A DNA stretch of 64,000 nt from contig CAYPIQ010000005.1 in NCBI GenBank assembly GCA_964410865.1, positions 7,037 to 71,036 on the forward strand. The letters run 5' to 3'. The position numbers were made by a program, and so were the translations under genes. Positions 14,216-52,265 of this stretch are shown here, in pieces. How positions within the stretch are numbered: the first letter of the stretch is position 1; every line of letters starts with the position of its first letter. The notes under the pieces were generated by a model, which saw only the letters and a program-made list of their open reading frames with translations, had not been told where the DNA came from and did no database searches. Source of the stretch: an uncultured Spirochaetales bacterium. Lineage in GTDB: Bacteria; Spirochaetota; Spirochaetia; JAFGDJ01.

Positions 14216-14242
14216 GAATCTTAATTCTTTCGGAGGATTTTT

Positions 14243-14319: not shown

Positions 14320-14592
14320 GATTGGTGGTCTATTAAAACTACCCTTTCCACCCACCAGAGAATGACGGTCGAGTATGTTACTAAAGATACCGAAGGAAGT
14401 CGTTTTCTCAATACCCTTAGGACGAACTCCCGGCTGGAGCCAGCGCATCTGGAGATATTTACGAAGCTGGGCTTGTCCGGCAGACCGCTGAACCGCCGTT
14501 TGTTAAAACGGAAAATCGGTAGTGATAACAAAAATAACCAACCTATTTTACAGGAGTGACTTAGCCTCTTTTTTGGCAAAGTTGGGTTAGGT
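14320..14592 (+). mobile_element. IS1634-like transposase C-terminal fragment and right end
   Basis: WSIKTTLSTHQRMTVE...EPAHLEIFTKLGLS; ends AAGTTGGGTTAG. Confidence 0.6.
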
Positions 14593-14705
14593 CTATTTGC
14601 CCGGTTTGAGGTACTTTGAAGACCAACAGGAGGTGCCTGTTCGCTCCAGAACGACGATTTCTGTCGATTTTAGGCGGAATGTCCCCATTTTCCCTGGTTT
14701 TCTCC

Positions 14706-14734
14706 TTGACACATAGGATCACTTTTCTTACAAC
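14706..14734 (+). promoter_or_regulatory. Sigma70-type promoter candidate for the fakA operon
   Basis: TTGACA-17 nt-TACAAC, ending 27 nt upstream of the ATG. Confidence 0.5.
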
Positions 14735-14761
14735 TTTTTACACGGATTTAGGTAAACTTCT

Positions 14762-17454: not shown

Positions 17455-17455
17455 A

Positions 17456-18067: not shown

Positions 18068-18119
18068 TGAAGAACTGTTGTCGATTGCCCCTGCGTGAAC
18101 TATCCTGTTCCCCGCGAAG

Positions 18120-33994: not shown

Positions 33995-34011
33995 TAATAG
34001 GACCAGATTTC

Positions 34012-34625
34012 TCATGGAAACGGAACCTCGGTTTGGACGATCACACGAATCAGTTTCTGGTCGGAGCAAAAGAGGAGGGCGAGGCCCTCGGCTTAGAGGT
34101 GGACACTTTTATTACCAACGGGGAGGATGCAAATTCCAGGATTTCGTCAACCTTGTTATGAATCAGGACTACGACGGAGTCATCCTCTCCCATGGAAAGG
34201 ACCCCTATGCCACCGAAGCGGGCCTGGCCCACGCTCTGGTGGGGGCAAACGGTGCAGGCAAATCCACCCTTATGAAGGTGCTTTCCGGTGTATACGATCA
34301 TTATACCGGAAGCATCTCCCTTAACGGCCGGGAGCTCGACATCCGGTCTCCGCCCGCCTTCAAGGCCTTCGGTATCGGGACCGTATACCAGGAAGTGGAT
34401 ACCTCCCTGGGGGTGGATGTGGGCGCCAAGAGGGATATTTTCGAACTCGTCGGGAATCCGGCGGGGCAGGGTAAGGCGATTATCTACGCATCCTGTGAAC
34501 CGGCCGAAATAATGGGAATATCCGACCGGGTCTAGGTCATGTATAACGGTACAATAGTGAAAGAACTGAAGACCGAACAGACCAGTGAACAGGAACTGCT
34601 TTTTTATTCAACCGGAGGAAAGTAG
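34012..34625 (+). pseudogene. Collapsed sugar ABC transporter remnants (binding protein fused to ATPase)
   Basis: RNLGLDDHTNQF...FQDFVN..YDGVILSHGKDPY joined to HALVGANGAGKST...VYQEVDT joined to GVDVGAK...ISDRV*VMY. Confidence 0.75.
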
Positions 34626-34628
34626 CAC

Positions 34629-35078
34629 ATGAAGACGGAAAGTCCCAATATGCAGGGTGAGAAAAAATTCGATTTTTTCGACTTTCTCTATAGATGGGGA
34701 ACGATCATCACTATCGTTCTCCTGATTATTTTTTTCAGCGTTAAGACGAAATCCTTTCTTTCAACGAAGAACATAATCAATATTCTCCGTTCCATCTCGA
34801 TTGTGACGGTTATCGCCATCGGTGTATCCACTTTTATGGTAAACACCCTCCTGGACACCACCATGACGGATTCGGAACACCGGAAGCAGTTTACCGGCCG
34901 GCTGGAAGAAACCATCCGGGATGTGATGCGCCTGTTCGTGGAGAAGTGGAAGAAGAGGTGGGGAAAAAAGGTTTCCGAGGTAACGGCACGGTACGACGGC
35001 TTCGCCGAAGGGTATCTCTCGGATGTTCTCGCGGACACTGCCGGGGAGTATCCCCGGCCGGAGGGGATCGGCGCATGA
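34629..35078 (+). pseudogene. ABC permease N-terminus fused in frame to a methylthioribose kinase (MtnK) fragment
   Basis: FFSVKTKSFLSTKNIINILRSISIVTVIAIG followed by FTGRLEETI...YLSDVLADTAG. Confidence 0.6.
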
Positions 35079-36130
35079 AGAGTGTGTACGCGGTGGATGC
35101 GGTAAAACTGGACGATGAAGAAGACGTTCTCATTATTCTGGATCAGACCCTGCTGCCCGGAGAAAAACGGTACCTGCATCTCACCGAGCGCAGGGATATC
35201 TGGGAGGCAATCTATCAGCTCAAGGTGAGGGGCGCCCCGGCCATCGGTATTGCCGCAGCCTACGGAGTTTATCTCTGTACAAAAAAGGCCTCCGCAGCCG
35301 ACGGAAAGAAACTCTACGAAGAATTCCTGAAGGTCAAGGACTACCTGGCCGGTTCCAGGCCCACGGCGGTCAATCTCTTCTGGGCATTGGACAGGATGGA
35401 TCGGCGGTTTCAGGACGTCATAAACAGCCCGGTGGAGGAGATTATTCGAGCCCTGAAGGAAGAAGCCGATGCCATACGAACCGAAGACGAGGAAGTCTGC
35501 CGTAAAATAGGAGAAAACGGTCTGGAACTTCTCGATAAAGGATGGGGGCTCCTGACTCATTGCAACGCAGGCACCCTGGCTACGGCACGGTTCGGAACGG
35601 CAACTGCCCCTATGTACCTCGGGGCCGAACAGGGCTACGGATTCAAGGTCTATGTGGACGAGACCCGGCCGCTCTTACAGGGTGCCCGTTTGACGGCATG
35701 GGAACTCATGGAAGCGGGCATCGACGTAACATTGATATGCGACAACATGGCGTCCATCGTCATGAAGCAGGGCAGAGTGCAGGCCGTTCTGGTAGGATGT
35801 GATCGGGTGGCTGCCAACGGGGACAGTGCAAATAAAATCGGAACATCGGGCCTGGCCGTACTTGCTCGATACTACGGTATTCCATTCTACATTCACGCAC
35901 CCCTTTCAACGGTAGATCTGTCCTGCCCGGGAGGTGAGGATATCGTCATAGAGCAACGGAGCCCTGAAGAAGTGACGGAGAAGTGGTACTCGAAACGTAT
36001 GGCCCCGGAAAAAGTGCGAGTGTATAATCCTGCTTTTGACGTAACGGATGCCGAACTTATTACTGCCATTGTTACGGAGAAGGGTATTGCCCGTCCGCCC
36101 TATACCGAGTCATTGAAGGCGTTTTTCTAG
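35075..36130 (+). CDS. mtnA: S-methyl-5-thioribose-1-phosphate isomerase
   Basis: LDQTLLP, VRGAPAIG, RPTAVNL, LTHCNAG, DETRPLLQGARLT, NKIGT, NPAFDVT; start ATG 35075. Confidence 0.95.
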   Translation: MKSVYAVDAVKLDDEEDVLIILDQTLLPGEKRYLHLTERRDIWEAIYQLKVRGAPAIGIAAAYGVYLCTKKASAADGKKLYEEFLKVKDYLAGSRPTAVNLFWALDRMDRRFQDVINSPVEEIIRALKEEADAIRTEDEEVCRKIGENGLELLDKGWGLLTHCNAGTLATARFGTATAPMYLGAEQGYGFKVYVDETRPLLQGARLTAWELMEAGIDVTLICDNMASIVMKQGRVQAVLVGCDRVAANGDSANKIGTSGLAVLARYYGIPFYIHAPLSTVDLSCPGGEDIVIEQRSPEEVTEKWYSKRMAPEKVRVYNPAFDVTDAELITAIVTEKGIARPPYTESLKAFF

Positions 36131-37124: not shown

Positions 37125-38048
37125 CTATTCCCAGAGCTGGTTGGAGTTTACAAGCCCCAGGTTGTCATAGATTTCTATGGTGGGTCGACTGCGGTTAAGG
37201 GTATAGAAATGTATGCCGTCCACGTCGTATGCCAGCAGGTCGAATACCTGCTGGGCGGCCCAGTGTATGCCGACGTTACGGACTTTCTCTTCCTCTACCC
37301 GGTGTATAGCTTCCAGCAGTCCGGAGGGAAATCGCGTGCCGGGTGAGAGTTCGGCCATTCTTGTCAGGCCCTTCCGGCTGGTTATGGGCATGATGCCGGC
37401 GAGAATAGGCACATTGATTCCCCAGAAATCACACCGGGCTTTGAAATCGTAGAATTCGTAATTGTCGAAGAACATCTGGCTTGTAAGGTAATCTACTCCT
37501 GCATCCACCTTCTCTTTTAAACGATCCATTTCGGTAAGCCGGTTGGGAGTATCTTTATGACCTTCGGGGTAACAGGCGGCTCCTATTCCCATATCCGGGA
37601 ATTCGCGCTTGATAAACCTGATAAGATCCGTTGCATACGCAAAGCCGTCTTTTTCAGGGACGAATTCTTTCTGTCCCTCCGGCGGGTCTCCGCGCAGGGC
37701 CAGAATATTCTTTATCCCCGCGTCATTATAGGTGCCGAGGATTTCGTATATTTCATGTTTACTCGAACCTACACAGGTGAGATGGGGAACCACGGTAAGC
37801 CCCGTCATTTTCTTGATTTTTAATACCAGTTCATGGGTGAGCTTCCGGGTCGTTCCCCCGGCCCCGTAGGTCACACTTACAAATGTCGGATGAAGGGGTA
37901 TTAGTTTTTCGATATTCCCGTAGAGTTCTTCCGCGCTTTTCTCGGTCTTCGGCGGGAAAAACTCAAAGCTGATACTTGTCTTTACTTTTTTGAGGATATC
38001 TTTGACCTTCATTCCCTTTATTTCGTTGTGTACGTCTTCAGCTCTCAT
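37125..38048 (-). CDS. metF: 5,10-methylenetetrahydrofolate reductase
   Basis: SFEFFPPK, SVTYGAGG, HLTC, ALRGDPP, YPEGH, SQMFF, HFYTLNR; ATGA overlap with the upstream gene. Confidence 0.96.
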   Translation of the reverse strand: MRAEDVHNEIKGMKVKDILKKVKTSISFEFFPPKTEKSAEELYGNIEKLIPLHPTFVSVTYGAGGTTRKLTHELVLKIKKMTGLTVVPHLTCVGSSKHEIYEILGTYNDAGIKNILALRGDPPEGQKEFVPEKDGFAYATDLIRFIKREFPDMGIGAACYPEGHKDTPNRLTEMDRLKEKVDAGVDYLTSQMFFDNYEFYDFKARCDFWGINVPILAGIMPITSRKGLTRMAELSPGTRFPSGLLEAIHRVEEEKVRNVGIHWAAQQVFDLLAYDVDGIHFYTLNRSRPTIEIYDNLGLVNSNQLWE

Positions 38049-39058
38049 TTGTTTACCCCCGCGTGAGATAGTGTGTCCATACTACCCCGGACCTTTTCCC
38101 GTTCTTCGGCAAAATCGAATCCCGTCCAGATTCCGATAGAATTCAGAATAGAATCCTGGGGATGATACGACCGGAATATTTTATAATAATAGGCCGCTTC
38201 TTTGCTGTTGATTACGGCCTTTGGATTGGTTTCCTTGATCTTCATATATTCATCATCCGATATTTCCTCTTCGGCCAGTCGTTGGCCAAGGCTCTCACAT
38301 CCGGCTCCCTGGGTATATTGTACCTTAAAACGCCATAAAATATCATCAGGAAGATAGCCTGTGCCCTCAAATGCCTTCCTGAGGATCCACTTCTCTATTT
38401 TTGTCCCCTCCACCTCGCGGATTTTGAGTTCCGCCGGAATCTGCTGAGCCAGGGCGAGCATGTCCGCGTCGAGGAAAGGTACCCTCAGTTCCAGGCTGAA
38501 AAACATACCCATGCGGTCCGCCCGCTGCAGGTTGATGTTATGAAGATTCCTGATACAGCGGCGGGCTTCCTCCTGTATCCTCTCCAGGGGGAAGTTTTTC
38601 ATGTACTGATATCCGGCAAACACCTCATGATACCCGTAATAGAGGGGTTTGATACCCACGGGGTCACGGGCAAGCATGACATCCTCACCGTCTATAACTG
38701 CAAAGGCAAACATACCGTCGAGATCGTGTATGCAATCCGGTCCCTTCTGACGGTAGAGATTCAGGACAGCTTCGGTATCGGAATTGGTTTCAAAGGGTAT
38801 ACGGGATGATATATTCTTTTGAATCTCTTTGAAGTTATAGATTTCTCCATTACAAACAATGCCGGTTTTTCCATTATTTCTGACCATGGGCTGGTGCCCC
38901 CCGGCAACGTCGACAATGGATAAACGCGTGTGGCCGAGGACCCCGCCGGGGAATGTGTAGGTGCCGCGATCGTCCGGTCCACGATGGAGAAGAGCGTCGA
39001 GCATCCGGTCTATTTTTGCAACATCTTTTTTCCCGATACAACCTGCTATTCCGCACAT
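38045..39058 (-). pseudogene. Asparagine synthetase (AsnB)-like amidotransferase with a large in-frame internal deletion
   Basis: MCGIAG, HRGPD, RLSIVD, NGEIYN, RDPVGIKPLYY joined directly to EVFAGY...LQRADRM...ELRVPFLD; SGGLDS ATP-binding region absent. Confidence 0.8.
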
Positions 39059-39115
39059 ATCATTCCCCCTTGCTTCTTTTTGCGTGAACCATATACATCT
39101 GTCGGTGGAACGAAC

Positions 39116-40588
39116 TCATCCCTTGTCCGGGGATTTCAGAATTCTGTCTACCTCGGTAAAGTCTAGGTCTCCTTCGATACGGCTGCCCTGGTAGAGGACT
39201 CCCCGCCTCAGGGGTCTGCGCGCTCCTTTCATGAAGACGTTACTGCCCATCCTCGAGGTACAGGCACTTTGAATTGCTTCGAACTGCTTATCCGCGTTTT
39301 CCCGGGTATAGTCGTCCTTTTTTTCGTATATGAAGTCGATTCTCCTTACGATTTCCTGCCGTATCGAATCGTTTACCGATATACCGAAGGTAGAAAGGGA
39401 TTTTTCCGCTGAGGACGCCGCAAACCGGGGAAGCTCCTCCGGAGGGATATCCGACAGGTTTTCTTTTATCTGCCCGAGAATGATATCGTCTATCACGTAC
39501 TGTTCGGGGCTCACCGTCATAACCTGTTCCAGCATACCCAGGGCGCTGTTGATATAATGGGCTCCGGTGGCTCCTTCGAATATCCAGCTCAGGGTCTTTT
39601 CCGCAATACCCTGGGCGGTGGGTTCCTTTTCGTCCGAAACAGCTGCCGTCCCGCAGCAGGGAATGCCGTAGTAGCGACACATTTCGGCTGCCAGGGCTAC
39701 CCGCCGGATACTGTCCGGCCGGCACCAGCGGGGGGATCCGTCGTGCAGCAGGTCGGAGGTGATGGGTATGCCCCGGTAAAAGACTTTTGCCCCCGGATGA
39801 ACGGCGTTGGCCAGAACGAAACCCGTGAGTACCTCGGCGTTGACCTGGGCCAGTTCGCCCAGTTCGGAGAGGGGGGCTGTGGCGCCGCCCTGGGGGCAGC
39901 TTGAAATACATACCGTCATGTCGTGCCCGGCAATTGCTTCCAGCTTGTCGGCCGCACCGTAGTCTATGGAAAGCGGGCTTACCACCAGGCAAACGATAAA
40001 AGAAAGGAGGTCCTTGTTACCGACAATATCGATGATGTCGTCGAGCTTTTCCGGTTTGACAAGGTTTGCCAGGTTTATCGGTTTTGTCGTATTCTCAGCA
40101 AAGATCTTCATCTTCTCCACGTCCATGACCTCGGCATCGACCTGCGGCTCCACGGGACGGGTTACAAAATCGACATTGGGAAGCCTTTCGCAGAGGCGTA
40201 AAATGTTCCTGAGGTCTTCGCCGTCCGCCGATTTTCGGACGAATTTTCCGTCCTTCCGGCTTAGTACATAAAGGGCCTGGCCGCCGGTTCCGTAGTTAAT
40301 GGCACTGGCTGAGGATTCCACGGTGAAAGAGAACCCCTCGTCCAGTGCGGGAAAGTGGACCGTTTTCGCCGTGAGGTCCAGGGTTTTCCGTACCGTGCCC
40401 CCGGGTACTAGGACCCGGTCTTCTTTAACCTCACATCCGGCCTGGGTAAGATATTCGATGGTCCGTTTGTTCTTTACCTTTACCCCGACTTCCGAGAGGA
40501 TCCTCATGGATGTTTCATGAATAAGGTCCTTTTCTTCCTTCGTTAAAAGAGAAAATGGCCGTACACTGTATGGCGTTTTCATCATCAA
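39116..40588 (-). CDS. MttB-superfamily (non-pyrrolysine) methyltransferase, divergent paralogue 1
   Basis: IHETSMRILSEVGV, YGTGG, VSPL, GATAPLS..GELAQ.NAEVL, LGMLE...SPEQYVIDD; Lys at the Pyl-equivalent position (GIAEKT). Confidence 0.85.
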   Translation of the reverse strand: MMMKTPYSVRPFSLLTKEEKDLIHETSMRILSEVGVKVKNKRTIEYLTQAGCEVKEDRVLVPGGTVRKTLDLTAKTVHFPALDEGFSFTVESSASAINYGTGGQALYVLSRKDGKFVRKSADGEDLRNILRLCERLPNVDFVTRPVEPQVDAEVMDVEKMKIFAENTTKPINLANLVKPEKLDDIIDIVGNKDLLSFIVCLVVSPLSIDYGAADKLEAIAGHDMTVCISSCPQGGATAPLSELGELAQVNAEVLTGFVLANAVHPGAKVFYRGIPITSDLLHDGSPRWCRPDSIRRVALAAEMCRYYGIPCCGTAAVSDEKEPTAQGIAEKTLSWIFEGATGAHYINSALGMLEQVMTVSPEQYVIDDIILGQIKENLSDIPPEELPRFAASSAEKSLSTFGISVNDSIRQEIVRRIDFIYEKKDDYTRENADKQFEAIQSACTSRMGSNVFMKGARRPLRRGVLYQGSRIEGDLDFTEVDRILKSPDKG

Positions 40589-40600
40589 TCCCCCGTTTTC

Positions 40601-41284
40601 TCAGACGGCTTTCCGGTAACTGTTCAGCTTCTCTACCGCCTCGAAGGCGTCGTGACAGTGAGCGTCGGCTCCAATCTTTTCTGCAAATTCCGGGGATGTT
40701 GGTGCGCCGCCGATGAATATCTTGATGTCCTTAAAACCGGATTTTCTGATTTCCCGGATGATGTGTTCCATCTCCGTCATTGTCGTGGTAAGGAGGGACG
40801 AGAGGCCGACATAATCCGGCTTGTATTCCTCTATCGTTTTCAGGATGTCTTCCGCCGAAACATCGATACCCATGTCCTTTACTTGATAGCCTGCCCCTTT
40901 CAGCATGGTGCCGACAATGTTCTTGCCGAGGTCGTGGAGGTCTCCCTTTACCGTGGCAATAAGGAATTTGCCTTTTTTCTGTTCATTCCCCCTGGCCAGG
41001 TGGGGTTCCACGATATCCATGGCTTCGCCTACGCATTCGGCCCCGGCGAGCATGTCCGGGAGGAGGAACTCTCCTTCTTCGTATTTCTGCCCGACCACAT
41101 CCATGGCGCTGTTAAAGGCGGTGAGAATATCTTCGGCCTTTACACCGTTTTCCAGCGCTTCTTCCACCAGTTCCACCGTTCCGGGCTGTCCCTCCATCTC
41201 GCCGTCGAAACCTTCGTCCGTTGCATCCAGGTGTCCCATAATTATGGCGTTCTGGATTTTTGCTAACATATCTTCCTTATTCAT
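40601..41284 (-). CDS. Cobalamin-binding (corrinoid) methyl-carrier protein
   Basis: MDVVGQKYE.GE..LP.ML, TVKGDLHDLGKNIV, SSLLTTTM, IGGAP; start ATG 41284. Confidence 0.93.
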   Translation of the reverse strand: MNKEDMLAKIQNAIIMGHLDATDEGFDGEMEGQPGTVELVEEALENGVKAEDILTAFNSAMDVVGQKYEEGEFLLPDMLAGAECVGEAMDIVEPHLARGNEQKKGKFLIATVKGDLHDLGKNIVGTMLKGAGYQVKDMGIDVSAEDILKTIEEYKPDYVGLSSLLTTTMTEMEHIIREIRKSGFKDIKIFIGGAPTSPEFAEKIGADAHCHDAFEAVEKLNSYRKAV

Positions 41285-41291
41285 TGCTCTT

Positions 41292-42845
41292 TTACCTTCC
41301 TTCTGTTTCAAAAAAATTATTCAGTTCCAGTAATCCGGGCACTTCCCGGTACATCTCTTCTATTGTTTCCTGTGGAAGGATTTCTCCGGGTCCCCGGAGT
41401 ATCTCTTCCAGTTTTTCCTGAGCCCTGATAAGTACATTGTCCGTGTCGGCATCCTCGGCAAAGGCGTAGGCATCAGATACCACACCCCTGCGCAGTTGTT
41501 TTCGTATGCCCCGGGCAAAGATTCCGGAAGAAGCGGTGATCTTCCTGATTTCGTTCAGGGCTGCTTCCGTGTCTTCCGTGTCAAAGCGGGGAAGGCGCAG
41601 CACATTTTTCAGCATGCCCAGGGTTGCGTTGTCCAGCACGGCCTGGAGGGGTGAGAACAAATTGGTCCGTTCCAGGAGCCCCAGGGCGTAATGGATATAC
41701 TGGGGTCCGGCGGAAGCAACCCCCATGAGTACGGGTACTTTTTCCATCAGGGCCTGCATGCCGGGGCGTTTGGCGTCTCCCACCCCTGCGCTCGAATAGC
41801 AGGGAATCCCGTAGTACCTGGCCATCTGGGCGCAGTCCATATTATAGTGGATAAACTCGGGGGCGCCATAGAAATCGTGAAGATTATCAGTCCGTGCCCT
41901 TACCGGAACAGCACCGTACAGTACGGGAGCCCCAGGCCGGACTATCTGGGTAAGGACGATATTGGCAATGATTTCCGCGTTTATCTGCATGACAATGCCC
42001 TCTTCCTGCACCGGTGCGGTGGAGCCGCCCTGGGGGGAGGAGGAGAGCACCAGGGGTAACCCGGTTTTTACCAGTTCCACAACCTTTTCCGATGTATCCT
42101 TTACCATCTGCAGGGGGCTCTTGATGGGACAGGCAATGAATGAAATAAGGGGGTTTTTCTGTAATGCTTCCTTACCCCCGGCTAGGATTTCCGCCAGTTT
42201 CATGACATGACCCAGTTTCTTTATGTCGGTGATGCCGGCTTGCACATGTTTCGTCATGTACAAAAGAGAGGCGAAGAACACATTTACGTCTTTATTCTCT
42301 TCTCGAATTGCTTCATCCTGAGGATTCACATTTCTGATGAAAAAATCCACATGATCAAGGGAGTTGCAGATCCGGGCCGAACGGGCCAGTTTTGCTATAC
42401 TGCCCCTTGTTTCCGAATAGACCGGGCAGGTAATGGTGTGTTCCGGGGTTTCCACGGACCTGAATTGTTCCAGGTGGGATTCGAGAAATATATTTGTCTC
42501 GGAACCTGTTCCGAAATATACGTAGGGTCTCGCCGAGTCCAGCGTCAGGGCGTTGGACGGATTCCTGGCACCCAGCACGATGTTTGAAGGCACGGAATCA
42601 AGGGCGTTTCGGATAACCTTGTCCGGTATCCTGACCGTCCAGGATTTCTTCGACTCTTTGGGCTCAACAGTACATCCGGCATCCCGGTATATACCGGCCA
42701 CCGGCTCAGAGAAGCAGGTTATCCCCGGGTCGGCTAACAGTTCCCTCGACCTCCTGTCCAGGTCCTGAAGGCTTTCCTTTGAAAGCCGTTCTACCGGTGC
42801 TACCTCCAGGCCGGGCTTGAATGTTCTTTCTTCTGTTTCATTCAT
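41292..42845 (-). CDS. MttB-superfamily (non-pyrrolysine) methyltransferase, divergent paralogue 2
   Basis: FGTGSE, SPLQ, GGSTAPV, QINAE, YGAPE, MARYYGIP, ALGLLE; Lys at the Pyl-equivalent position (LMEKV). Confidence 0.85.
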   Translation of the reverse strand: MNETEERTFKPGLEVAPVERLSKESLQDLDRRSRELLADPGITCFSEPVAGIYRDAGCTVEPKESKKSWTVRIPDKVIRNALDSVPSNIVLGARNPSNALTLDSARPYVYFGTGSETNIFLESHLEQFRSVETPEHTITCPVYSETRGSIAKLARSARICNSLDHVDFFIRNVNPQDEAIREENKDVNVFFASLLYMTKHVQAGITDIKKLGHVMKLAEILAGGKEALQKNPLISFIACPIKSPLQMVKDTSEKVVELVKTGLPLVLSSSPQGGSTAPVQEEGIVMQINAEIIANIVLTQIVRPGAPVLYGAVPVRARTDNLHDFYGAPEFIHYNMDCAQMARYYGIPCYSSAGVGDAKRPGMQALMEKVPVLMGVASAGPQYIHYALGLLERTNLFSPLQAVLDNATLGMLKNVLRLPRFDTEDTEAALNEIRKITASSGIFARGIRKQLRRGVVSDAYAFAEDADTDNVLIRAQEKLEEILRGPGEILPQETIEEMYREVPGLLELNNFFETEGR

Positions 42846-42862
42846 AATAATCCACCTTGTCC

Positions 42863-43678
42863 TTACGCGTCGAAGAGGCCGGACCTGTAAGCCCTGGAAA
42901 ACGAACGGCAGAAACGGTCGTTCCCCGCGATGAGTTCACCCAGTACCACGGCCTGCTTGAGCAGCGGCTTCCTGGGGTCACAGATGGCCGAATCGAGTCC
43001 GTATGTAATGGCAATGGAAAGGAAGGTACTGTTGATGTGTAACCGTTTTTTAAGGCCGTGAGAAACATTGGAGAGTCCCATGGTGGTTTTTACCTTCGGG
43101 TATTTCTCCTTTATTCCCTGGATCGTATGAAAGGTTACCATTCCCTGGGTAATATCCGCGGATATGGGCAGCGCCAGGGGGTCGAAGAAGAGGTTCCGGT
43201 CTTCTATTCCCCTGGAGGCTGCTTCATCCCGGATGTGTGAACAAATCTCTATTCGTTTGTCGGCATCGGGGGGTATACCGTCTTTATCCATGGCCAGGGC
43301 AATGAGGGGGACCTGGTAAGAAGAAGCCAGGTCCATGATAGCCTTCATGTCGTCGGAAAAGTCTCCCTTGATGGAATTCAGCATCCAGTCTCTCCGGTTA
43401 TCAAGATGGGCGGCCGCCTTTTTGAGGACCTCTGGTCCGGAGGCGTCGAGGACGAGCTTTTTCCGGGTGCACTCCAGGGCTATATCTATAAGCCGGCAGA
43501 GGTCGTCGATTTCCCTCTGCTCGTCCCCCATACCGGTACCGGCATTCAGGTCAATATAGTGAGCTCCGGCTTCGTCCTGGCTCTTGATCTGCGAGATAAT
43601 GGCGTCTTTGTCCTTTTCCAGAATCGCCTTTTTAATACTCTTTCGCGTTGCGTTAATGCATTCACCGATAATAATCAT
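42863..43678 (-). CDS. Methyltetrahydrofolate:corrinoid methyltransferase (pterin-binding, AcsE-like)
   Basis: IIGECINATRK, IDLNAG, LDAS, LNSI, FFDPL, GLSNVSHG, LDSAICDP. Confidence 0.92.
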   Translation of the reverse strand: MIIIGECINATRKSIKKAILEKDKDAIISQIKSQDEAGAHYIDLNAGTGMGDEQREIDDLCRLIDIALECTRKKLVLDASGPEVLKKAAAHLDNRRDWMLNSIKGDFSDDMKAIMDLASSYQVPLIALAMDKDGIPPDADKRIEICSHIRDEAASRGIEDRNLFFDPLALPISADITQGMVTFHTIQGIKEKYPKVKTTMGLSNVSHGLKKRLHINSTFLSIAITYGLDSAICDPRKPLLKQAVVLGELIAGNDRFCRSFSRAYRSGLFDA

Positions 43679-43712
43679 ACCAAATCTTATCCTTACAATG
43701 TATATTCTTCAT

Positions 43713-45143
43713 TTATGATAACGGCCCCCAGGTTTTCTTGATCCGATCCTGCAGTTCCCGGTCGAGGTAGCAGCGTTCTTCGCTTTCAAGAATTTCCTTT
43801 ACCTTTGCATGGGCCCTTTCCTGGGCGGAGAGAGAGCCGTTTTTCTCCCAGACGGACCGCTGGTCCCGGTCACTCAACCGCGGATGGTAATGTTCCGTGC
43901 GCATGAACTTACGGGTATGCTGGGAGGTAAGAAAATTTCCGCCCGGCCCGGCACGCTTGATTTCCCGCACCGCCAGGGTCGTGTCGTTGACATCAATCCC
44001 GCGTATAGCCCTGTCGGCCATGCCGAGGATCTCGTTGTCGATCACGAGTTTTTCAAGACTCACGGTCATGGCGAATTCCATGAGTCCGGCGGCATCGTGA
44101 ATGAAATCCGCACCGGCCAGCCCTACGAGCAGATTGTTTATAGCCGACTCGTACCCGCACTGGGCGTCAAGGGTCTTGGAATCGCTTATGCCCGCGGTGG
44201 CGTAGTAGGGCAACCTGTAAAAATGGGTCATCTGCGCCACCGCGGCGTTTATCATACCGCTTTCCACCGGTCCGCCGAGATATCCAAGGTTTCGCAGGTC
44301 CGTGGAGGTGGATACACACCCGTATATGACCGGTGTTCCCGGGTTGACGAGCTGGGTCAGCATAACATTGATCAGGGCGTCGCAGTTCTGTATCAGGATA
44401 TTCCCTGCCAGTGACATGGGCGAGGTAGCTCCGCAGAGAGGTTCGGCCGGAACCGCCAGGGGTATTCCTTCCCGGGCAATCTGGATCATGTAGCTTCCGT
44501 ATTTGCTATCCAGTTTTAGGGGACTTATTCCGCAGGTGATCATGGATATAAAGGGCCGTCGGCGTAATTCCTCCGGAGAGCCGGCTATTTCTTCGGCCAT
44601 GCGAATCACATCGTGGATTCCCTTCGATGTATAGACGCCGCCCATTATATGTTTACCCGTATATTTGAGTCCCGTATAGAAGCGGTTTATGTCCACTACA
44701 TCGATCTCAAGATCGTTGGGATATGTCGGGAGGAGAAGCAGATGAACGTAGTCCAGCTTGTCGGTTACCCGCGTGACATGCTCCAGATCCTTTAATGTTG
44801 CCGGCCTTCTCGTATCACCGGGAAAGTCCAGGATATTCAAGGCTGTTCCCCCGGTGCCGTAATAAACGTTTCCGGAGCCGAGTCTGCACTCCCGGCCATC
44901 TTCCAGGCCGTAAAGGGTGATTTTTTCGGGGGCCTTGTCGATCAATTCACGTACCGTTGATTCAGAAAGATGGACAATGCGTTTTTCCGTGTCCACCTTT
45001 GCGGCTACCTTACTGAAGAGTTCCCAGGCTTCCTTTTCGTGGACTTCGAATCCGGTTTCCGACAGGATATCCATTGTCGCAGCATCGATGTTGCGTATTT
45101 CCCGGTCGCTTAGTGGTTTGTACTGATGAATTCGTTTCTCCAT
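43713..45143 (-). CDS. MttB-superfamily (non-pyrrolysine) methyltransferase, paralogue 3
   Basis: ISPL, GATSPMSLAG, PGTPVIYG, SDSKTLDAQCGYESA, HDAAGLME...SLEKLVIDNE; Ser at the Pyl-equivalent position. Confidence 0.9.
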   Translation of the reverse strand: MEKRIHQYKPLSDREIRNIDAATMDILSETGFEVHEKEAWELFSKVAAKVDTEKRIVHLSESTVRELIDKAPEKITLYGLEDGRECRLGSGNVYYGTGGTALNILDFPGDTRRPATLKDLEHVTRVTDKLDYVHLLLLPTYPNDLEIDVVDINRFYTGLKYTGKHIMGGVYTSKGIHDVIRMAEEIAGSPEELRRRPFISMITCGISPLKLDSKYGSYMIQIAREGIPLAVPAEPLCGATSPMSLAGNILIQNCDALINVMLTQLVNPGTPVIYGCVSTSTDLRNLGYLGGPVESGMINAAVAQMTHFYRLPYYATAGISDSKTLDAQCGYESAINNLLVGLAGADFIHDAAGLMEFAMTVSLEKLVIDNEILGMADRAIRGIDVNDTTLAVREIKRAGPGGNFLTSQHTRKFMRTEHYHPRLSDRDQRSVWEKNGSLSAQERAHAKVKEILESEERCYLDRELQDRIKKTWGPLS

Positions 45144-45159
45144 ATGTGTCTTCCTTCTC

Positions 45160-45230
45160 TATTAGCTGCTCATGCCGCCGCGCGGCAACCGAAAGGATGA
45201 AAATAGGCGGACACCGCCATTTTCGTATTA
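45160..45230 (-). repeat. MITE-like double-hairpin repeat, copy 2
   Basis: Near-identical to copy 1; TA at both ends. Confidence 0.85.
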
Positions 45231-45243
45231 TCTGTTAAATAAA

Positions 45244-45957
45244 TTAGTAAACGGGTTCAAACAGGGATGATGTGCGTCGGAAGGGGCATCGAGTTTTTCC
45301 GCAGGATAAACATGCGTTTCCTTCTTCACGAATCACATCTTCTTCTCCAACTCCCAGTACCGCCGTGATGGATTTTCTGGGATTCATAAGGCATGACTCA
45401 TTCAGTGTCAGACCGATGCGGTCGGTTGAGAGAAATCTGAATACATGCTTTTGTTGACTGACGTGCCAGTCACAGTACCCGGGGCTGTAACGGTGTGTCA
45501 CAATATACTCGGGTAGTGCTTCATAATATAAGCGGGTATGAAGGGTATCCATGCAGCTCTCCACCGCTACGGAAGCTACCGTATCGAGTACCAGCCTGTC
45601 CCCGGTGGTCAGATCCGGGTTGTGAAGGATATCGTCTACATCCGGCCCGAGGGTTACCGCAAATACAACGGCATAGGAGGCATTACGGAGAACCGATGAT
45701 ATTTTCCTGCTTTTTACCGGAAAATCGAGGTCGTCGAGGTACATGCCCGTCTCATCGGACAAAATAGAGGCATATCTCCACATACCGCGAGGGTCGGCCG
45801 CCTTTCTGATTTCGGACACAGCGTCGTCGACCATTTTTCTCAGCCGGACGGATACGGTGGCGTTGTCTCCCCCTAATTTTTTGTACACTATACTATTTAA
45901 TAGTTCGTAGGCTAATATATTAGTTGTCTGTATACGTTTCTTTTCAAGAACTAACAA
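45244..45957 (-). CDS. Stand-alone methionine synthase activation-domain-like protein
   Basis: FAVTLG, RYSPGYCDW, IGLTL.ESCLM.PRKSITAVLG, C-terminal CxxC...C; TTG start uncertain. Confidence 0.82.
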   Translation of the reverse strand: MLVLEKKRIQTTNILAYELLNSIVYKKLGGDNATVSVRLRKMVDDAVSEIRKAADPRGMWRYASILSDETGMYLDDLDFPVKSRKISSVLRNASYAVVFAVTLGPDVDDILHNPDLTTGDRLVLDTVASVAVESCMDTLHTRLYYEALPEYIVTHRYSPGYCDWHVSQQKHVFRFLSTDRIGLTLNESCLMNPRKSITAVLGVGEEDVIREEGNACLSCGKTRCPFRRTSSLFEPVY

Positions 45958-46172
45958 GAATCATTCTCCTTTTTGTTGAAAAAATACTAGTAAGTATATA
46001 TAATATAAGTAATTATTAGCTTACTCGTATATAAATAACAAGCAAACCTCATTATTTGATACATTATGCTTTCTGAAGTTAAAAATAATATTTAGTTCAA
46101 TAACAAACATCAGTTCTATTTATTTAGACATCTAATCAATTATTTGTCAAGAGGACGTGGAAAAAATAAAGA

Positions 46173-47942
46173 TTATTTTTTCAAGCTCCTCACCCATAGA
46201 ATGGTACGGATAAGTATGTAAATACTGATGAGAGAGAGGCCGATGGCCAGAATGTAGAGCACAATGTCGGTCATAGTACCGGCGGCACCACCCAGGGGAG
46301 GCCAGGCCTTCTGGACATCAGAACCGGTTTTGACCAGAACGGCGATCAAGAGCAATACGACCGCACTGCCTAGGATAACCAGGTCCGTATTTTTGACCCT
46401 GGCCGGTTTTTCTTTACTCTCGAATATTTCCCTGAAGACAGGTCCGATTCTTTCCGGCCTGTAAGGGGCGACCCAGCTCATGAGAAGGTATATCACGAAT
46501 CCTATGGCCAGCCCGATAAAGATAGCAGGAACACCCCCGATGCCGGCTCCGTTGAATACCGCCATACCGCCTCCGGAATAGAATACCAGCGCCAGGGTTA
46601 CGCCTCCGCTTATAAGACAGCCCCAGAACGCCGCGGCTTCCGTCATTCTCTTCCAGTAGGTAGATAGAAGAATCAGCGGGGACACCGCCGCGCAGAGGAC
46701 GATTTGGGCGGTAATGGCAGTGGCGAAAACACCGGCGTTGCGTACGGAGGGCGCAAAACTCAAGGCTGCAAGGGCTACCACCGGGATCATGATACGTATA
46801 AACCGAATCATCTGCCGGTCGTCGGCATCCTTTTTTATAAACTGCTTGTATATGTTCTTGGTAATAATGGCCGCCGTGGCATTCAGGTAGGTAGAGACGG
46901 TACTCATAACTGCAGCGGTAATGGCCGTAACAAAGATGGCCATTCCGATACCCGGCATGGCGGTATTGGCTATGAGTAGAATAATGGAATCGGTAACCTG
47001 GATGCCGGGGAAGAGTTGTCCGCCCATGACACCCATGGCAACCATGATACAGGCCCACAGGGTAACAATGAGCAAAAATCCCAGACTGGCTTTGCGGCCT
47101 TCCAGCGGGTTCTTGGCTGCAAGCATTCGCTGCATAAAACCAAGATCTATAGGAATCCACAGAGAACCGGCCAAGCCCATGGCGATGAGCGAGATAGGTG
47201 TTACCCCTGCAAAGGACGGCAGAGAGAACAAGTCCGTATACCCAGGCCAGACGTTGGCTCCCTCCACCGGAGTATAACCGGTATTGCCAAGGAGGGCACC
47301 GAAGAATTCGGAGAAGGTCCCGAATTTGCTGAAGACCGCGGGAACCAGGAAGGCCGTGCCGAAGATGATTATCAGCCACTGGATAGTGTCGGTGAATACG
47401 ACCCCGTTCAAGCCTCCCATCATGCAGTAAAAAACCGTTATGACACCCACGATGAGAATTGCCGGCCACATGGGTATCCCGAACACAGTCTCTATCACCA
47501 GAGCACCACCGAAGAAGCAGATGGCCGTAGAGACGACACCCCAGGCGATCTGCCAGATCGCCAGCAGAATCGTGGTCCTACCCGAACCCGGATACCGCGC
47601 CTGGGCCAGGTCGACGATGGTGTCGAAGTTGAGGTGCCGGTAGCGGGACCCGAGCCTGACGAGGAGCGGATAGATGAAGATGTTCACCAGGATGAAGAAC
47701 CAGATCATGGGGGACAGACCCAGGGCGTAACTGGTGCCGGCTATGCCCAGAGTCTGCTGGGCATTAGCCAGGGTGGCCAGCATGGTCATGGCAATGACGA
47801 ACCACGGGATGCCCCGGTTGCCCAGGATGAAGTCGGCGAAATTATTTACCCGGTTTTTGAAATAGAAGCCAAGGTAGAACATGAATGCGAGATACACGCC
47901 CAGAACGATTAGTACAAGGGTAGAATTGAATTCCATGTTCAT
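46173..47942 (-). CDS. Sodium:solute symporter family transporter
   Basis: DFILGNR.IPW, MGGLNGVVFTDTIQ, MQRMLAAK, AAVMSTVSTYLN. Confidence 0.92.
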   Translation of the reverse strand: MNMEFNSTLVLIVLGVYLAFMFYLGFYFKNRVNNFADFILGNRGIPWFVIAMTMLATLANAQQTLGIAGTSYALGLSPMIWFFILVNIFIYPLLVRLGSRYRHLNFDTIVDLAQARYPGSGRTTILLAIWQIAWGVVSTAICFFGGALVIETVFGIPMWPAILIVGVITVFYCMMGGLNGVVFTDTIQWLIIIFGTAFLVPAVFSKFGTFSEFFGALLGNTGYTPVEGANVWPGYTDLFSLPSFAGVTPISLIAMGLAGSLWIPIDLGFMQRMLAAKNPLEGRKASLGFLLIVTLWACIMVAMGVMGGQLFPGIQVTDSIILLIANTAMPGIGMAIFVTAITAAVMSTVSTYLNATAAIITKNIYKQFIKKDADDRQMIRFIRIMIPVVALAALSFAPSVRNAGVFATAITAQIVLCAAVSPLILLSTYWKRMTEAAAFWGCLISGGVTLALVFYSGGGMAVFNGAGIGGVPAIFIGLAIGFVIYLLMSWVAPYRPERIGPVFREIFESKEKPARVKNTDLVILGSAVVLLLIAVLVKTGSDVQKAWPPLGGAAGTMTDIVLYILAIGLSLISIYILIRTILWVRSLKK

Positions 47943-48980: not shown

Positions 48981-50036
48981 ATGAATTTTTATTATGCTCT
49001 ATATGCGGCCCTGGGAGGTAGTGTTCTTGCCATGGGGTTCGCTTTATTTAAAACACGCTGGATTTATCGGCAAAAGGTTGAAAGCCTGGAATTGGCGAAG
49101 ATTGCCTGTTTTGTACAGGAAGGCGCAATGGCGTTTCTTTCGAGGGAATACAGAACCCTTGTTCCTTATGTAGCAATTGTCGCGGTATTTCTTGCCCTTC
49201 CCGGCGGTACCGTTATGGGGATGAGCGTCGTCGGCCTTTCGTTACTCGGTATTTTTATCGTTCTTCTTGTGTTTATACGACTGGCCGGCAGCGGTGTCCC
49301 TGAACTCAAGACTCCGGTGTTTCCCCTCCTTTCAGGCTTCTCCCTGGGGGCATCGTCTATTGCTCTGTTTTCCAGGGTGGGTGGAGGTATATTCACCAAG
49401 GCGGCGGATGCAGGGGCCGATCCGGTTGGAAAAGTAGAAGCCGGTATTCCTGAAGACGATCCGCGTAACCCGGCCACCATTGCGGATAATGTGGGCGATA
49501 ACGTGGGTGACGTTGCCGGTATGGGAGCCGACCTCTTCGAGTCCTTTGTAGGTTCTATTGTCGGAGCGATGATTCTCGGACTCTCGGTAAGTGCTTCCGA
49601 CGATCTGCGTATAAAACCGGCGGCGGTTTCGCTGCTGCTTGCCGTTACAGGCCTAGGCGTAGGTATGATGTCCGCCTTTCCTGTGGTGATACTCATCGGC
49701 TCCGCCATGGTGCTGAGCAACCTCCCAGCCGGTCTATATGGAATAGCGATTTCCGCCGTCGGCATGCTGGTAACCCTGGGTATTCAGCTGGCGGTGGATG
49801 CCTACGGACCCATCGCGGATAACGCCGGCGGGGCCTGGGACAATGCAAAGAAGATGATAGAGAGCGGCAACCTGGGTGGGAAAGCATCGGAAGCCCACAA
49901 GGCAGCAGTGGTGGAAGACACCGTCGGAGATCCCTTTAAAGACACCGCCGGCCCGTCGTTGAATATACTGATAAAGTTGAAGTCGGTGGTATCCCTCGTC
50001 ATTGCACCTATGCTAAAAACATTTCATGGATTATAA
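48981..50036 (+). pseudogene. Collapsed membrane pyrophosphatase paralogue (351 aa, at least 3 in-frame deletions)
   Basis: HppA motifs [28 protein letters not shown] retained but large blocks missing; conserved residues altered (GADPVG, VVEDTVG, IKLKS). Confidence 0.85.
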
Positions 50037-50069
50037 ATCCATGTAAAAAATATTGAAGGAGAACCAAGT

Positions 50070-52265
50070 ATGCTGAATAATTTATTCTGGATCGTCCCCT
50101 GTTGTGCCTTTCTGGCACTCATGTTCGCCCTCGTATTCTACATCCAGATGAAAAAAAAGAGCGAGGGAACGGACCAGATGATCAAGATCGCCTCGTATGT
50201 CCGGAAAGGAGCCATGGCGTATCTCAAGCAGCAGTACAAAGTCGTTATCATTGTGTTTGCTGTTCTGACGGTTTTTTTCGCCCTGCTGGCGTATGTATTC
50301 AAGGTACAGAACCCCTGGGTCCCCGGAGCTTTTCTTACCGGGGGATTCTTCTCGGCCCTGGCCGGTTTTTTCGGTATGAAGACCGCTACTTATGCCTCCG
50401 CCAGGACGGCCAATGCCGCCAGGGAGTCTCTGAATGGTGGTCTCAAGATTGCCTTTCGCAGCGGCGCCGTCATGGGACTCGTGGTGGTCGGCCTTGGTCT
50501 TCTGGACATTTCCATCTGGTTCATCGTTCTGAATGCAGTGTATCCCGCTGCTGCCAACGACACGCATAATCTGACTATGATCACCACCACCATGCTCACC
50601 TTCGGTATGGGTGCCTCGACGCAGGCATTATTTGCCAGGGTAGGCGGCGGTATTTTTACCAAGGCGGCCGACGTAGGGGCCGACCTGGTCGGTAAGGTAG
50701 AAGCGGGTATTCCCGAAGACGATCCGCGTAACCCGGCTACCATCGCCGATAATGTCGGAGATAATGTCGGTGATGTCGCCGGTATGGGAGCCGACCTCTA
50801 CGAGTCATATTGCGGTTCGATCCTGGCAACCGCGGCCCTCGGTGCGGCCGCCTTTACCGGTAGTGTGGATATGCAGTTCAGGGCGGTTATTGCTCCCATG
50901 CTTATCGCCGCGTTCGGTACAATTCTTTCGATCATCGGGATTTTCGCCGTACGGACACGGGAGGATGCGGATCAACGACTTCTTTTAAAGGCCCTCAACA
51001 GGGGTATCAACCTCAGTTCCGTCCTGATCGTGGTAGTCTCCTTTTTTGTACTGCGGGTCCTGGATATCCCCAATTCCCTCGGTATCTGGGGCTCCATAGT
51101 CACCGGCCTTCTGGTCGGTATTGGTATCGGAAAGGTCACCGAATATTTTACCTCCTCTTCTTATAAACCCACCCAGGAAATATCCAGGAACGCCCAAACG
51201 GGACCGGCTACGGTTATTATAGCCGGGCTGGGCACCGGTATGATCTCCACCGCTCTTCCGGTGCTTTTTATCGTTATCGGGACAATCATGGCGTTTCTCT
51301 TTTCTTCCGGATTCGATATGGCAAACATGAGCATGGGGCTCTACGGGATCGGTATTGCAGCTGTAGGGATGCTCTCCACCCTGGGGATAACTCTGGCTAC
51401 CGACGCCTACGGACCCATTGCCGATAATGCGGGAGGAAACGCGGAGATGTCCGGCCTGGGCAAGGCCGTACGAAACCGTACGGACGCCCTGGATTCCCTG
51501 GGGAATACCACCGCGGCCACCGGAAAGGGTTTTGCCATCGGTTCGGCCGCCCTGACCGCCCTGGCTCTTCTTGCCTCTTATATAGAAGAGCTTAAAATAG
51601 GACTGATACGCATCGGCCAAACCACCCTGGAGTTCGGAAACGGCCGGATGGTCGAAACGGCAAAGGCAACCCTGATGGACTTTATGAATTATTACGAAGT
51701 AAACCTTATGAACCCCCGGGTGCTGGTGGGTATGTTTACAGGGTCCATGCTCGCCTTTCTTTTCTGTGGTTTGACTATGAATGCCGTGGGAAGCGCGGCG
51801 GGTAAAATGGTTGAGGAGGTCCGCAGACAGTTTAAAACTATCAAGGGAATTCTCGAGGGGCAAGCGGAACCCGATTACGCTCGATGTGTCGAGATATCGA
51901 CTAAAGGAGCGCAGGCGGCCATGCTGATCCCCTCTCTCCTGGCTATTGTTGCTCCAATTATCATGGGATTTTTCTTCGGAGTAGCCGGTGTTATGGGGTT
52001 ACTGGTAGGCTGCCTGGCTGCAGGATTTGTTCTTGCAATTTTTATGGCTAATTCCGGCGGGGCCTGGGACAACGCAAAGAAATTTATCGAAGAAGGCAAC
52101 TTTGGAGGCAAAAACTCCGAATCCCATAAAGCCGCCGTTATAGGTGACACGGTGGGTGACCCGTTCAAGGACACGTCAGGGCCGTCGCTTAACATTCTTA
52201 TCAAGTTGATGACTATGGTTTCAATCGTCATGGCCGGCTTGACTGTTGCGTTCTCGATCCTATAA
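50070..52265 (+). CDS. hppA: Membrane-bound ion-translocating pyrophosphatase, K+-dependent type
   Basis: [26 protein letters not shown] (Ala of the K+-dependent group), [15 protein letters not shown]. Confidence 0.96.
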   Translation: MLNNLFWIVPCCAFLALMFALVFYIQMKKKSEGTDQMIKIASYVRKGAMAYLKQQYKVVIIVFAVLTVFFALLAYVFKVQNPWVPGAFLTGGFFSALAGFFGMKTATYASARTANAARESLNGGLKIAFRSGAVMGLVVVGLGLLDISIWFIVLNAVYPAAANDTHNLTMITTTMLTFGMGASTQALFARVGGGIFTKAADVGADLVGKVEAGIPEDDPRNPATIADNVGDNVGDVAGMGADLYESYCGSILATAALGAAAFTGSVDMQFRAVIAPMLIAAFGTILSIIGIFAVRTREDADQRLLLKALNRGINLSSVLIVVVSFFVLRVLDIPNSLGIWGSIVTGLLVGIGIGKVTEYFTSSSYKPTQEISRNAQTGPATVIIAGLGTGMISTALPVLFIVIGTIMAFLFSSGFDMANMSMGLYGIGIAAVGMLSTLGITLATDAYGPIADNAGGNAEMSGLGKAVRNRTDALDSLGNTTAATGKGFAIGSAALTALALLASYIEELKIGLIRIGQTTLEFGNGRMVETAKATLMDFMNYYEVNLMNPRVLVGMFTGSMLAFLFCGLTMNAVGSAAGKMVEEVRRQFKTIKGILEGQAEPDYARCVEISTKGAQAAMLIPSLLAIVAPIIMGFFFGVAGVMGLLVGCLAAGFVLAIFMANSGGAWDNAKKFIEEGNFGGKNSESHKAAVIGDTVGDPFKDTSGPSLNILIKLMTMVSIVMAGLTVAFSIL

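Follow-up and report, generated by a model that had tools for sequence, protein, structure and literature searches.

The window analysed here, a stretch of 64,000 nucleotides from an uncultured Spirochaetales bacterium, carries a minus-strand cluster of nine genes (37125-47942) that encodes three paralogous methyltransferases of the MttB superfamily (MttB-1, MttB-2 and MttB-3), together with a single corrinoid protein, a methyl-tetrahydrofolate (methyl-THF):corrinoid methyltransferase and an asparagine synthetase-type gene, asnB (Table 1). The three paralogues, referred to below as MT1 enzymes, form a block that recurs in several bacterial phyla, and an AsnB-like amide synthetase that lacks the nucleophilic cysteine appears to belong to the same pathway in most of the genomes, presumably in an accessory role. 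The individual parts of this system are familiar; the fixed block of three MT1s with its Cys-less AsnB-like partner is new. A literature search found no paper on the triad or on its link to AsnB, and the pathway is probably still undescribed. Our preferred reading, to which we give about an even chance, is that the operon serves corrinoid-dependent N-demethylation of an imported betaine-type osmolyte, with the methyl groups passing to THF and the three paralogues working in series on one compound. Because the three MT1s are mutually distant yet co-inherited, they would serve one pathway, most simply through successive demethylations.

The evidence for co-inheritance comes from a scan with an MttB-1 profile, limited to one genome per species, which identified 33 loci in which synteny and open reading frame (ORF) classification define three clean orthogroups of 31, 30 and 31 members. 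The genes recur in the order ActD-MttB3-MT2-MttB2-CoP-(MetV-MetF-CoP2)-MttB1, where ActD is the activation-domain gene, MT2 the methyl-THF:corrinoid methyltransferase and CoP the corrinoid protein, and the bracketed genes are optional. The triad block is kept in about 30 genomes of the Bacillota, Spirochaetota, Acidobacteriota and Fibrobacterota, and this recurrence in several phyla indicates that the gene grouping is more than chance. Named carriers are Dethiobacter alkaliphilus, Ca. Contubernalis alkaliaceticus, Phosphitispora and Marispirochaeta, and the carriers among metagenome-assembled genomes (MAGs) are labelled Spirochaetaceae, Syntrophomonadaceae, Aminicenantes/Acidobacteria, Chitinivibrionales/Fibrobacterota and others; isolate names suggest that many of the carriers were sampled from soda lakes (CSSed series) and the Great Salt Lake (GSL). 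All three MttB paralogues of the window have their closest named relatives in Marispirochaeta (60, 64 and 74% identity), and the MttB-2 orthologues in about 30 loci show 52-57% identity. The order MttB-1, asnB, metF is common only to the window, Marispirochaeta and L002, a locus 92% identical to the window's. An activation-domain gene lies upstream of MttB-3 in most of the related loci, a second corrinoid protein gene lies immediately upstream of MttB-1 in some, and a MarR regulator is found upstream in eight. The distance matrices of MttB-1 and MttB-2 are correlated with r = 0.83.

A departure from this layout was seen in five Dethiobacteria-like MAGs (L005, L018, L020, L021 and L025), where the MttB-3 orthologue is replaced and a 48%-identical MttB-3 copy, accompanied by a separate MT2 and corrinoid protein, is located downstream of the AsnB-like gene. 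In three of them (L020, L021 and L025) there is also a third MttB-3-like gene, which lies upstream and is encoded on the other strand.

Clade-specific pockets of the three MttB paralogues

The three paralogues are as distant from one another (27-28% identity) as each of them is from the solved Desulfitobacterium hafniense MtgB (DhMtgB) and M. barkeri MttB (MbMttB), for which identities range over 24-32%, with MttB-3 at ~32% and MttB-1 and MttB-2 at 24-29%. An earlier note on this DNA had described the latter two as strongly divergent, and these values bear it out. All three match the superfamily profile PF06253 (cut-off 25), and all three miss TIGR02369, the equivalog model of pyrrolysine (Pyl)-containing MttB, for which the cut-off is 525 bits (scores in Table 1). 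Among solved structures the best sequence match of MttB-3 is MtgB (E 3e-74), and that of MttB-1 and MttB-2 is M. barkeri MttB. None of the best 120 matches to MttB-3, all with at least 57% identity, is named Eubacterium. MttB-1 is the most isolated of the three; among 1.84 billion representatives clustered at 50% identity, its clade is represented by two full-length sequences (548 and 484 bits), and the next match past its own clade scores 182 bits with 36% identity. An AlphaFold2 (AF2) model of MttB-1 (pLDDT 85.7, pTM 0.89) has the TIM-barrel MttB fold with a C-terminal arm, and Foldseek aligns it to 7xcl, 9yce, 2qne and 4yyc (MttB, MtgB and a Sinorhizobium homologue) with TM scores of 0.69-0.72.

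The site occupied by Pyl in M. barkeri MttB (X334 in 7xcl) corresponds to Val317 in MttB-1, Val355 in MttB-2 and Ile319 in MttB-3, and to a leucine in DhMtgB. The surrounding P-x-x-x-x-x-x-[Pyl]-x-D segment aligns with MbMttB without gaps, and the lysine that the earlier note had assigned to the Pyl site is instead a conserved residue located four positions further downstream. The note's observation that the genes contain no in-frame amber codon holds for all nine ORFs, in which TGA and TAA are likewise absent.

In MtgB, glycine betaine is bound by Y97, R312, H348 and F356 (PMC13080624). At these four positions MttB-1 has G/C/S/V, MttB-2 S/Y/Y/T and MttB-3 G/Y/D/A, near-invariantly within each clade, with an alignment register that is less certain at H348/F356 than at R312. 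At the columns of MbMttB Met249, Ser328 and Tyr329, the last of which corresponds to MtgB R312, the residues are Cys231, Cys311 and Cys312 in MttB-1, Ser270, Cys349 and Tyr350 in MttB-2, and Glu234, Tyr313 and Tyr314 in MttB-3. The three pocket cysteines of MttB-1 are invariant in 32 of 32 sequences (residue numbers follow the 490-aa ORF; the gene call is 488 aa, with its start at 40582). For the MttB Gly110-Thr111 loop and Tyr364, HMMER and MAFFT give registers that are ambiguous by 1-2 residues. Each MttB clade has its own fixed pocket signature. Because the MtgB binding residues are replaced in every clade and the pockets are clade-specific, none of the three MT1s is an orthologue of MtgB or of Pyl-MttB. 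MttB-3 was considered as an MtgB orthologue on the strength of its best E-value, and the residues of its binding site rule this out. The earlier note held that tight clustering of all three with one characterised enzyme would speak against its proposal; no such clustering is seen with the solved MtgB and MttB.

AsnB-type genes beside the triad

Two kinds of AsnB-type gene accompany the triad. Type A is canonical asnB, the kind present in the window, and type B is a Cys-less AsnB-like gene of 480-490 aa. Type B is located downstream of MttB-1 in nearly all loci, some of which also carry type A; in the lineage formed by the window, L002 and Marispirochaeta, only type A occupies this position, and in the window it carries a deletion. 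Type B retains an invariant PP-loop (LSGGLDSS) and an invariant GEGADELFGGY motif, and its nucleophile cysteine is replaced by Ala, Ser, Thr or other residues (Cys in 0 of ~70 metagenome sequences with a readable N-terminus). Its NGE glutamine-binding motif has become DGx, and the AsnB residues T322-T323-x-R325 have become D-C-I-S. The closest solved relative of type B is E. coli AsnB (6e-55), with beta-lactam synthetase far behind.

The association also holds in the reciprocal direction. Metagenomes were searched with a type-B profile, and loci whose flanks extend for 2 kb or more on each side were counted; 37 of the 40 such loci have an MttB-family ORF within 3 kb of type B. The link between a glutaminase-dead amide synthetase and MttB genes is therefore robust, and it points to an accessory chemistry that has gone unrecognised, comparable to the part that choline kinase plays in the MthB pathway. 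Four architectures occur around type B, namely the full triad, a form without MttB-1, a form with MarR and short MttB-like proteins, and a form with only a betaine-type ATP-binding cassette (ABC) importer. The third, which accounts for ~30 of 80 metagenome loci (L070-L100 and others; for example L074 6428-11680), contains MarR, a ~385-aa MttB-like protein, type B, a DAO-family FAD oxidoreductase, a second short MttB-like protein and often a CN_hydrolase, and has no corrinoid protein or MT2 nearby. In several triad loci a CN_hydrolase resembling the NadE glutaminase follows type B. Complementarity between canonical AsnB and CN_hydrolase as glutaminase partners of type B is suggestive and not strict, as many loci have type B alone.

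The asnB gene of the window is of the canonical kind but has lost 576 nt (192 codons) in frame, with the deletion junction at window position ~38625. The earlier note had called it AsnB-like; the family assignment stands, and the loss of the synthetase core had gone unnoted. Judged against the 529-aa orthologue in L002, which scores 570 bits with NF006949 (cut-off 499), residues ~145-336 are gone, and with them the ATP-binding core, including the PP-loop FCSGGLDSS and the catalytic TGEGADE motif. The N-terminal Ntn glutaminase domain is intact, with an MCGIAG start and GATase_7 and GATase_6 matches over residues 28-146, and the Asn_synthase profile resumes at positions 205-311. Like E. coli AsnB (1ct9), the window gene and its 529-aa orthologue are of the canonical type, and type B is closest to the same enzyme; the window copy, however, lacks the PP-loop and GEGADE, whereas type B keeps both and lacks the nucleophile Cys and NGE. 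Contigs from three independent runs (X1, X2 and X3) span the deletion junction. Run X2 also holds a loose end that encodes TVVLTGEGAD, so a full-length allele coexists with the deletion allele, and in this sediment metagenome the two constitute a natural presence/absence polymorphism of the synthetase core. In the closest named genome, that of a Marispirochaeta sp. (L041, 16013-18525), the asnB and metF genes that follow MttB-1 are both broken up into two or three ORFs, which are either real pseudogenes or sequencing frameshifts in the assembly.

A proposed demethylation pathway and its alternatives

The cluster holds three MT1s, one corrinoid protein, one MT2, an activation-domain protein and MetF. 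The three-component scheme of MT1, corrinoid protein and MT2 is known from MtgBCA and MttBC (PMC13080624, PMC9842639, PMC12478193), and oxidation of methyl-THF by an adjacent MetF paralogue (MetF2) has a precedent in Ruegeria (PMC12478193). In the proposed pathway a transporter would import the substrate, this being the Na+/solute symporter here and an MFS transporter or a betaine-type ABC importer in relatives. Each MttB paralogue would then methylate the one corrinoid protein in its Co(I) state, the pterin-binding MT2 would transfer the methyl group from the corrinoid protein to THF, and MetF would oxidise methyl-THF to methylene-THF; corrinoid oxidised to the Co(II) form would be rescued by the MetH-activation-domain homologue. 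The serial order would run from quaternary to tertiary to secondary amine, for example from glycine betaine through dimethylglycine and sarcosine to glycine. Corrinoid demethylation of glycine betaine to dimethylglycine and then sarcosine has been proposed on physiological grounds, although the enzymes of the later steps are not known (PMC9768040). What we infer from the genes and their neighbourhoods is the kind of substrate, the direction in which methyl groups flow, the serial order of the paralogues and the part played by the AsnB-type enzyme. Stepwise or multi-substrate N-demethylation feeding MetF had been put forward in the earlier note; the parts fit that proposal, and its stepwise version gains from the one-to-one orthologues that stay together across phyla.

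The substrate class is suggested by the transport genes. In six to seven loci an ABC importer with a fused permease and substrate-binding domain (SBD) lies directly downstream of the cluster, and its binding domain matches the OpuBC/OpuCC/ProX/EgtUC class. Proteins of this class bind choline, carnitine, betaines and ergothioneine. Because the adjacent importers are of the betaine type, the substrate is predicted to be a trimethylammonium (betaine-type) osmolyte.

Several observations weigh against serial demethylation of a betaine-type compound. The transporter is an SSF symporter here, an MFS_2 protein at the same position in L002 and a ProV-like ABC system in Contubernalis; as it differs between close relatives, it does not fix the identity of the substrate. 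MttB-3 shows weak co-evolution with MttB-1 and MttB-2 (r 0.39-0.49), because it has been replaced in the Dethiobacteria-like MAGs. MttB-1 is missing from seven variant clusters (L043, L083, L101, L103, L104, L116 and L118) that retain the activation-domain gene, MttB-3, MT2, an MttB-2-like gene, the corrinoid protein and AsnB-type genes, so the three steps are not obligatory. The window has a defective AsnB and lacks a Cys-less AsnB-like gene, and its pathway may differ from that of the other genomes. Tertiary and secondary amines are harder methyl donors, for which methanogens need pyrrolysine, and Pyl is absent here. In addition, no C1-oxidation or Wood-Ljungdahl genes were found within the 64 kb, and none of the RNA runs lists the locus. 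As a separate observation, the MttB-1 slot of L043 (14564-15817) holds a 417-aa SAM-methyltransferase-like protein, which was rejected as a homologue of glycine/sarcosine N-methyltransferase; it resembles CpaM weakly (25 bits).

The pocket residues, which differ sharply among the three clades, could also reflect three separate specificities. Each MT1 may take a different quaternary amine (candidates are glycine betaine, choline or carnitine derivatives, hercynine and ergothioneine) and share one corrinoid protein and one MT2, which would make the cluster a multi-substrate osmolyte demethylase. All six members of the MttB superfamily with a known substrate use quaternary amines or trimethylamine (TMA), each with its own specificity (PMC12155760), and the class to which the adjacent ABC binding domain belongs has a broad quaternary-ammonium range. 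Independent specificities would, however, be expected to assort separately, as they do in Eubacterium, which has a separate cluster for each MT1, whereas the triad is inherited as a fixed block across phyla, usually with one transporter; we regard this arrangement as credible but not likely. It is improbable that only a single paralogue is catalytic and that MttB-1 and/or MttB-2 are non-catalytic partners, whether as subunits of hetero-oligomers, as sensors or as scaffolds for the corrinoid protein. A neighbouring subunit helps to bind the corrinoid protein in the solved MttB hexamer (PMC9842639), the tight co-evolution of MttB-1 with MttB-2 would fit such a partnership, and the Pfam match of MttB-1 ends at residue 381. 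Both clades nevertheless keep many invariant polar or Cys pocket residues and an invariant Asp two residues after the Pyl position, and they are under constraint near that of MttB-3 (dN/dS 0.13-0.15 versus 0.08). The confident, full TIM-barrel fold of the MttB-1 model and the second corrinoid protein gene just upstream of MttB-1 in some loci also argue for catalysis.

Three MT1s would match the three steps of a Pyl-free cascade from TMA through dimethylamine (DMA) and monomethylamine (MMA) to ammonia, with AsnB-type enzymes capturing the nitrogen. MttB-2 and MttB-3 have a tyrosine at the position of MbMttB Tyr329 rather than the arginine of MtgB, and ammonia is usable by asparagine synthetases. 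Against these points, the adjacent importers are betaine-type binding-protein systems and not methylamine permeases, neither Pyl nor a replacement activating group is evident, and the characterised non-Pyl MttB members all use quaternary amines (PMC12155760), which makes such a cascade very unlikely. We give hardly any credence to flux in the biosynthetic direction, in which methyl-THF would methylate an amine via the corrinoid protein to yield an N-methylated osmolyte and the AsnB-like enzyme would contribute ATP-dependent chemistry. Soda-lake and salt-lake genomes, in which the system is enriched, need osmolytes, and MT2 enzymes can be bidirectional (PMC12478193); betaine is, however, a stronger methyl donor than methyl-THF, so that formation of a quaternary ammonium from the latter is thermodynamically uphill, transport by binding-protein ABC systems and symporters is inward, and the MarR regulator and operon layout are of a catabolic style.

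Serial demethylation, the reading that we prefer, also has a variant in which the AsnB-like enzyme takes a direct part, and which we consider rather unlikely. Type B would use ATP and ammonia to amidate the betaine carboxylate, and the three MttBs would demethylate the amide to a primary amine without pyrrolysine. The ammonia would come from a partner glutaminase (canonical AsnB or the NadE-like CN_hydrolase). The MttB paralogues would be blind to the carboxylate, and removal of its charge would lower the pKa of the amine and so improve the leaving group. In the last demethylation MttB-1, whose pocket has three invariant cysteines, might employ a metal, and an amidase would finally free the amino acid. 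If true, this would amount to a new logic of substrate activation among cobalamin methyltransferases and would supply the missing anaerobic dimethylglycine and sarcosine demethylases. A parallel is the MthB/MthC/MthA/MthK phosphocholine pathway of Eubacterium limosum, in which an ATP-using accessory enzyme derivatises the substrate before demethylation (PMC12155760). The two are likened by gene content; the accessory enzyme there is a kinase rather than an amide synthetase, and that pathway has one MT1. The MthK precedent motivates, but does not prove, a similar derivatising role for the AsnB-like synthetase.

Comparison with other corrinoid systems separates the shared framework from what is particular to the triad. 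MtgBCA of D. hafniense (MtgB 2qne, 9yce) likewise combines a non-Pyl MT1, a cognate corrinoid protein and a pterin-binding MT2 that delivers methyl groups to THF, but here there are three MT1s instead of one, at 24-32% identity and with the four MtgB binding residues replaced in all clades, a MetH-activation-domain homologue takes the place of reactivation partner, and AsnB-type genes are associated. M. barkeri MttB/MttC (7xcl, 7xcn) shares the fold (TM 0.70 for the MttB-1 model) and differs in its UAG codon, where the triad has Val, Val and Ile for Pyl334, and in its acceptor pathway, which leads to CoM and not to THF. Several MT1 and corrinoid components with one MT2 are also found in 'Ca. 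Formimonas warabiya' DCMF and Sporomusa ovata An4, for which successive demethylations have been suggested (PMC9768040); sarcosine is reductively cleaved in those organisms, whereas here the MT1s form a fixed triad at 27-28% identity and no grd genes are in view.

Betaine-type osmolytes are major sources of carbon, nitrogen and methyl groups in saline anoxic sediments and are precursors of methane. To our knowledge, the MttB-superfamily members with known substrates each remove a single methyl group, and we know of no anaerobic enzyme that demethylates dimethylglycine or sarcosine. The divergent MT1 triad, which is present in cultured organisms, is a directly testable candidate for complete anaerobic demethylation. 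If the three enzymes are ordinary betaine demethylases that work in parallel, they would add three new specificities to a known kind.

Gene map and surroundings of the cluster

The nine minus-strand genes and the families to which the earlier note had assigned them were recovered in full with Pfam and NCBIfam (Table 1).

Table 1. Features of the corrinoid cluster, in window coordinates
Feature	Position	Strand	Supporting match
SSF sodium:solute symporter, 589 aa	46173..47942	-	PF00474 1e-53; TIGR00813 197 bits, above cut-off
Stand-alone MetH-activation-domain homologue, 237 aa	45244..45957	-	PF02965 26.8 bits (cut-off 25)
Putative terminator-like GC hairpin and T-run	45206..45218	-	consensus scan only
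MttB-3, 476 aa, non-Pyl MttB-superfamily MT1	43713..45143	-	PF06253 335 bits; TIGR02369 434 bits
Methyl-THF:corrinoid methyltransferase (MT2, pterin-binding), 271 aa	42863..43678	-	PF00809 81 bits
MttB-2, 517 aa, divergent non-Pyl MT1	41292..42845	-	PF06253 191 bits; TIGR02369 232 bits
Corrinoid protein, 227 aa, B12-binding cap and Rossmann domains	40601..41284	-	PF02607, PF02310
MttB-1, 490-aa ORF, most divergent MT1	39116..40588	-	PF06253 170 bits, residues 9-381 only; TIGR02369 178 bits
asnB remnant, 337 aa	38045..39058	-	GATase_7 residues 43-145; Asn_synthase profile
MetF methylene-THF reductase, 307 aa	37125..38048	-	PF02219 305 bits; TIGR00676 331.6 bits (cut-off 293.7)

With intergenic gaps of 7-57 bp from MttB-3 through AsnB and a 4-bp overlap between AsnB and MetF, the spacing is operon-like. 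The 100 bp that separate MttB-3 from the activation-domain gene contain the terminator-like hairpin, and between the activation-domain gene and the symporter lie 215 bp of AT-rich sequence with promoter-like sites. The symporter is probably the substrate importer, with a promoter region of its own. The activation-domain protein, whose residues 21-206 align with T. maritima TM0269 (PDB 1j6r; E 4e-8) and whose C-terminus carries a CxxC..C motif, is probably the reactivation factor of the corrinoid protein; no RamA/RACo-type ATP-dependent reductive activase was found among the nine cluster genes or the other scanned ORFs of the window. MT2 is a pterin-binding TIM barrel and scores 238 bits with NF005719, slightly under the cut-off of 259. 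In the corrinoid protein, the DxHxxG motif of the His ligand is present as DLHDLG at residue 115, and the top NCBIfam model is the MtgC-like NF047996, at 175 bits against a cut-off of 370, so that it is not an MtgC equivalog. A scan at Rfam gathering thresholds returned no cobalamin or other riboswitch. Every gene is under purifying selection, with dN/dS of 0.03-0.15 against L002.

The earlier note had spoken of an island. The cluster shares its tetranucleotide signature with the rest of the window, in which all segments except 9.9-18.1 kb agree mutually (0.90-0.93), and that term does not hold. Among named references the signature of the window is nearest to Marispirochaeta flanks (0.81-0.84), and the runs that hold the locus are marine-sediment and oil-field metagenomes. 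Together with the relationships of the cluster genes, this signature makes a Marispirochaeta-like spirochaete the likely source, although the window carries no marker gene. The earlier note's phrase on a lineage not known for methylotrophy goes beyond what the sequence could tell. The deviant segment (9900-18100) has 37% GC versus about 50% and a tetranucleotide signature of its own. It begins with a phage-type integrase (9900-11084), which is followed by a DUF3800 protein, FakA, DegV and PlsY, and its FakA is 76-78% identical to Anaerophaga/Bacteroidales proteins. This affinity to Bacteroidota was not adopted for the cluster, given the low GC, the bounding integrase and the deviant composition of the segment. 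The segment may be a Bacteroidota-derived island or a mis-join; a chimeric contig is not supported, because the depth across the segment is even and matches that of the flanks in run X1. Just upstream of FakA (14360-14660) the Logan contigs break into several loose ends that diverge, and word depth rises ~2.5-fold (25-30 versus ~11), which suggests a repeated or variable element.

Three further features of the window lie outside the cluster. A second, shorter SSF symporter (442 aa; 20181-21509), 25% identical to that of the cluster, adjoins an aminotransferase and a DUF2804 gene. At 32681-34535 a 437-aa ORF joins a RuBisCO-large-like N-terminal part to a Sugar-bind domain and overlaps a 213-aa ORF; MtnA (IF-2B family, 34946-36130) adjoins it, and together they may represent a methionine-salvage locus of the RuBisCO-like-protein type with a fusion or frameshift. 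Finally, two H+-pyrophosphatase ORFs are adjacent at 48981-52265, one of full length (731 aa) and one of 351 aa in which the H_PPase match falls into four broken stretches, and the latter looks like a truncated or degraded paralogue.

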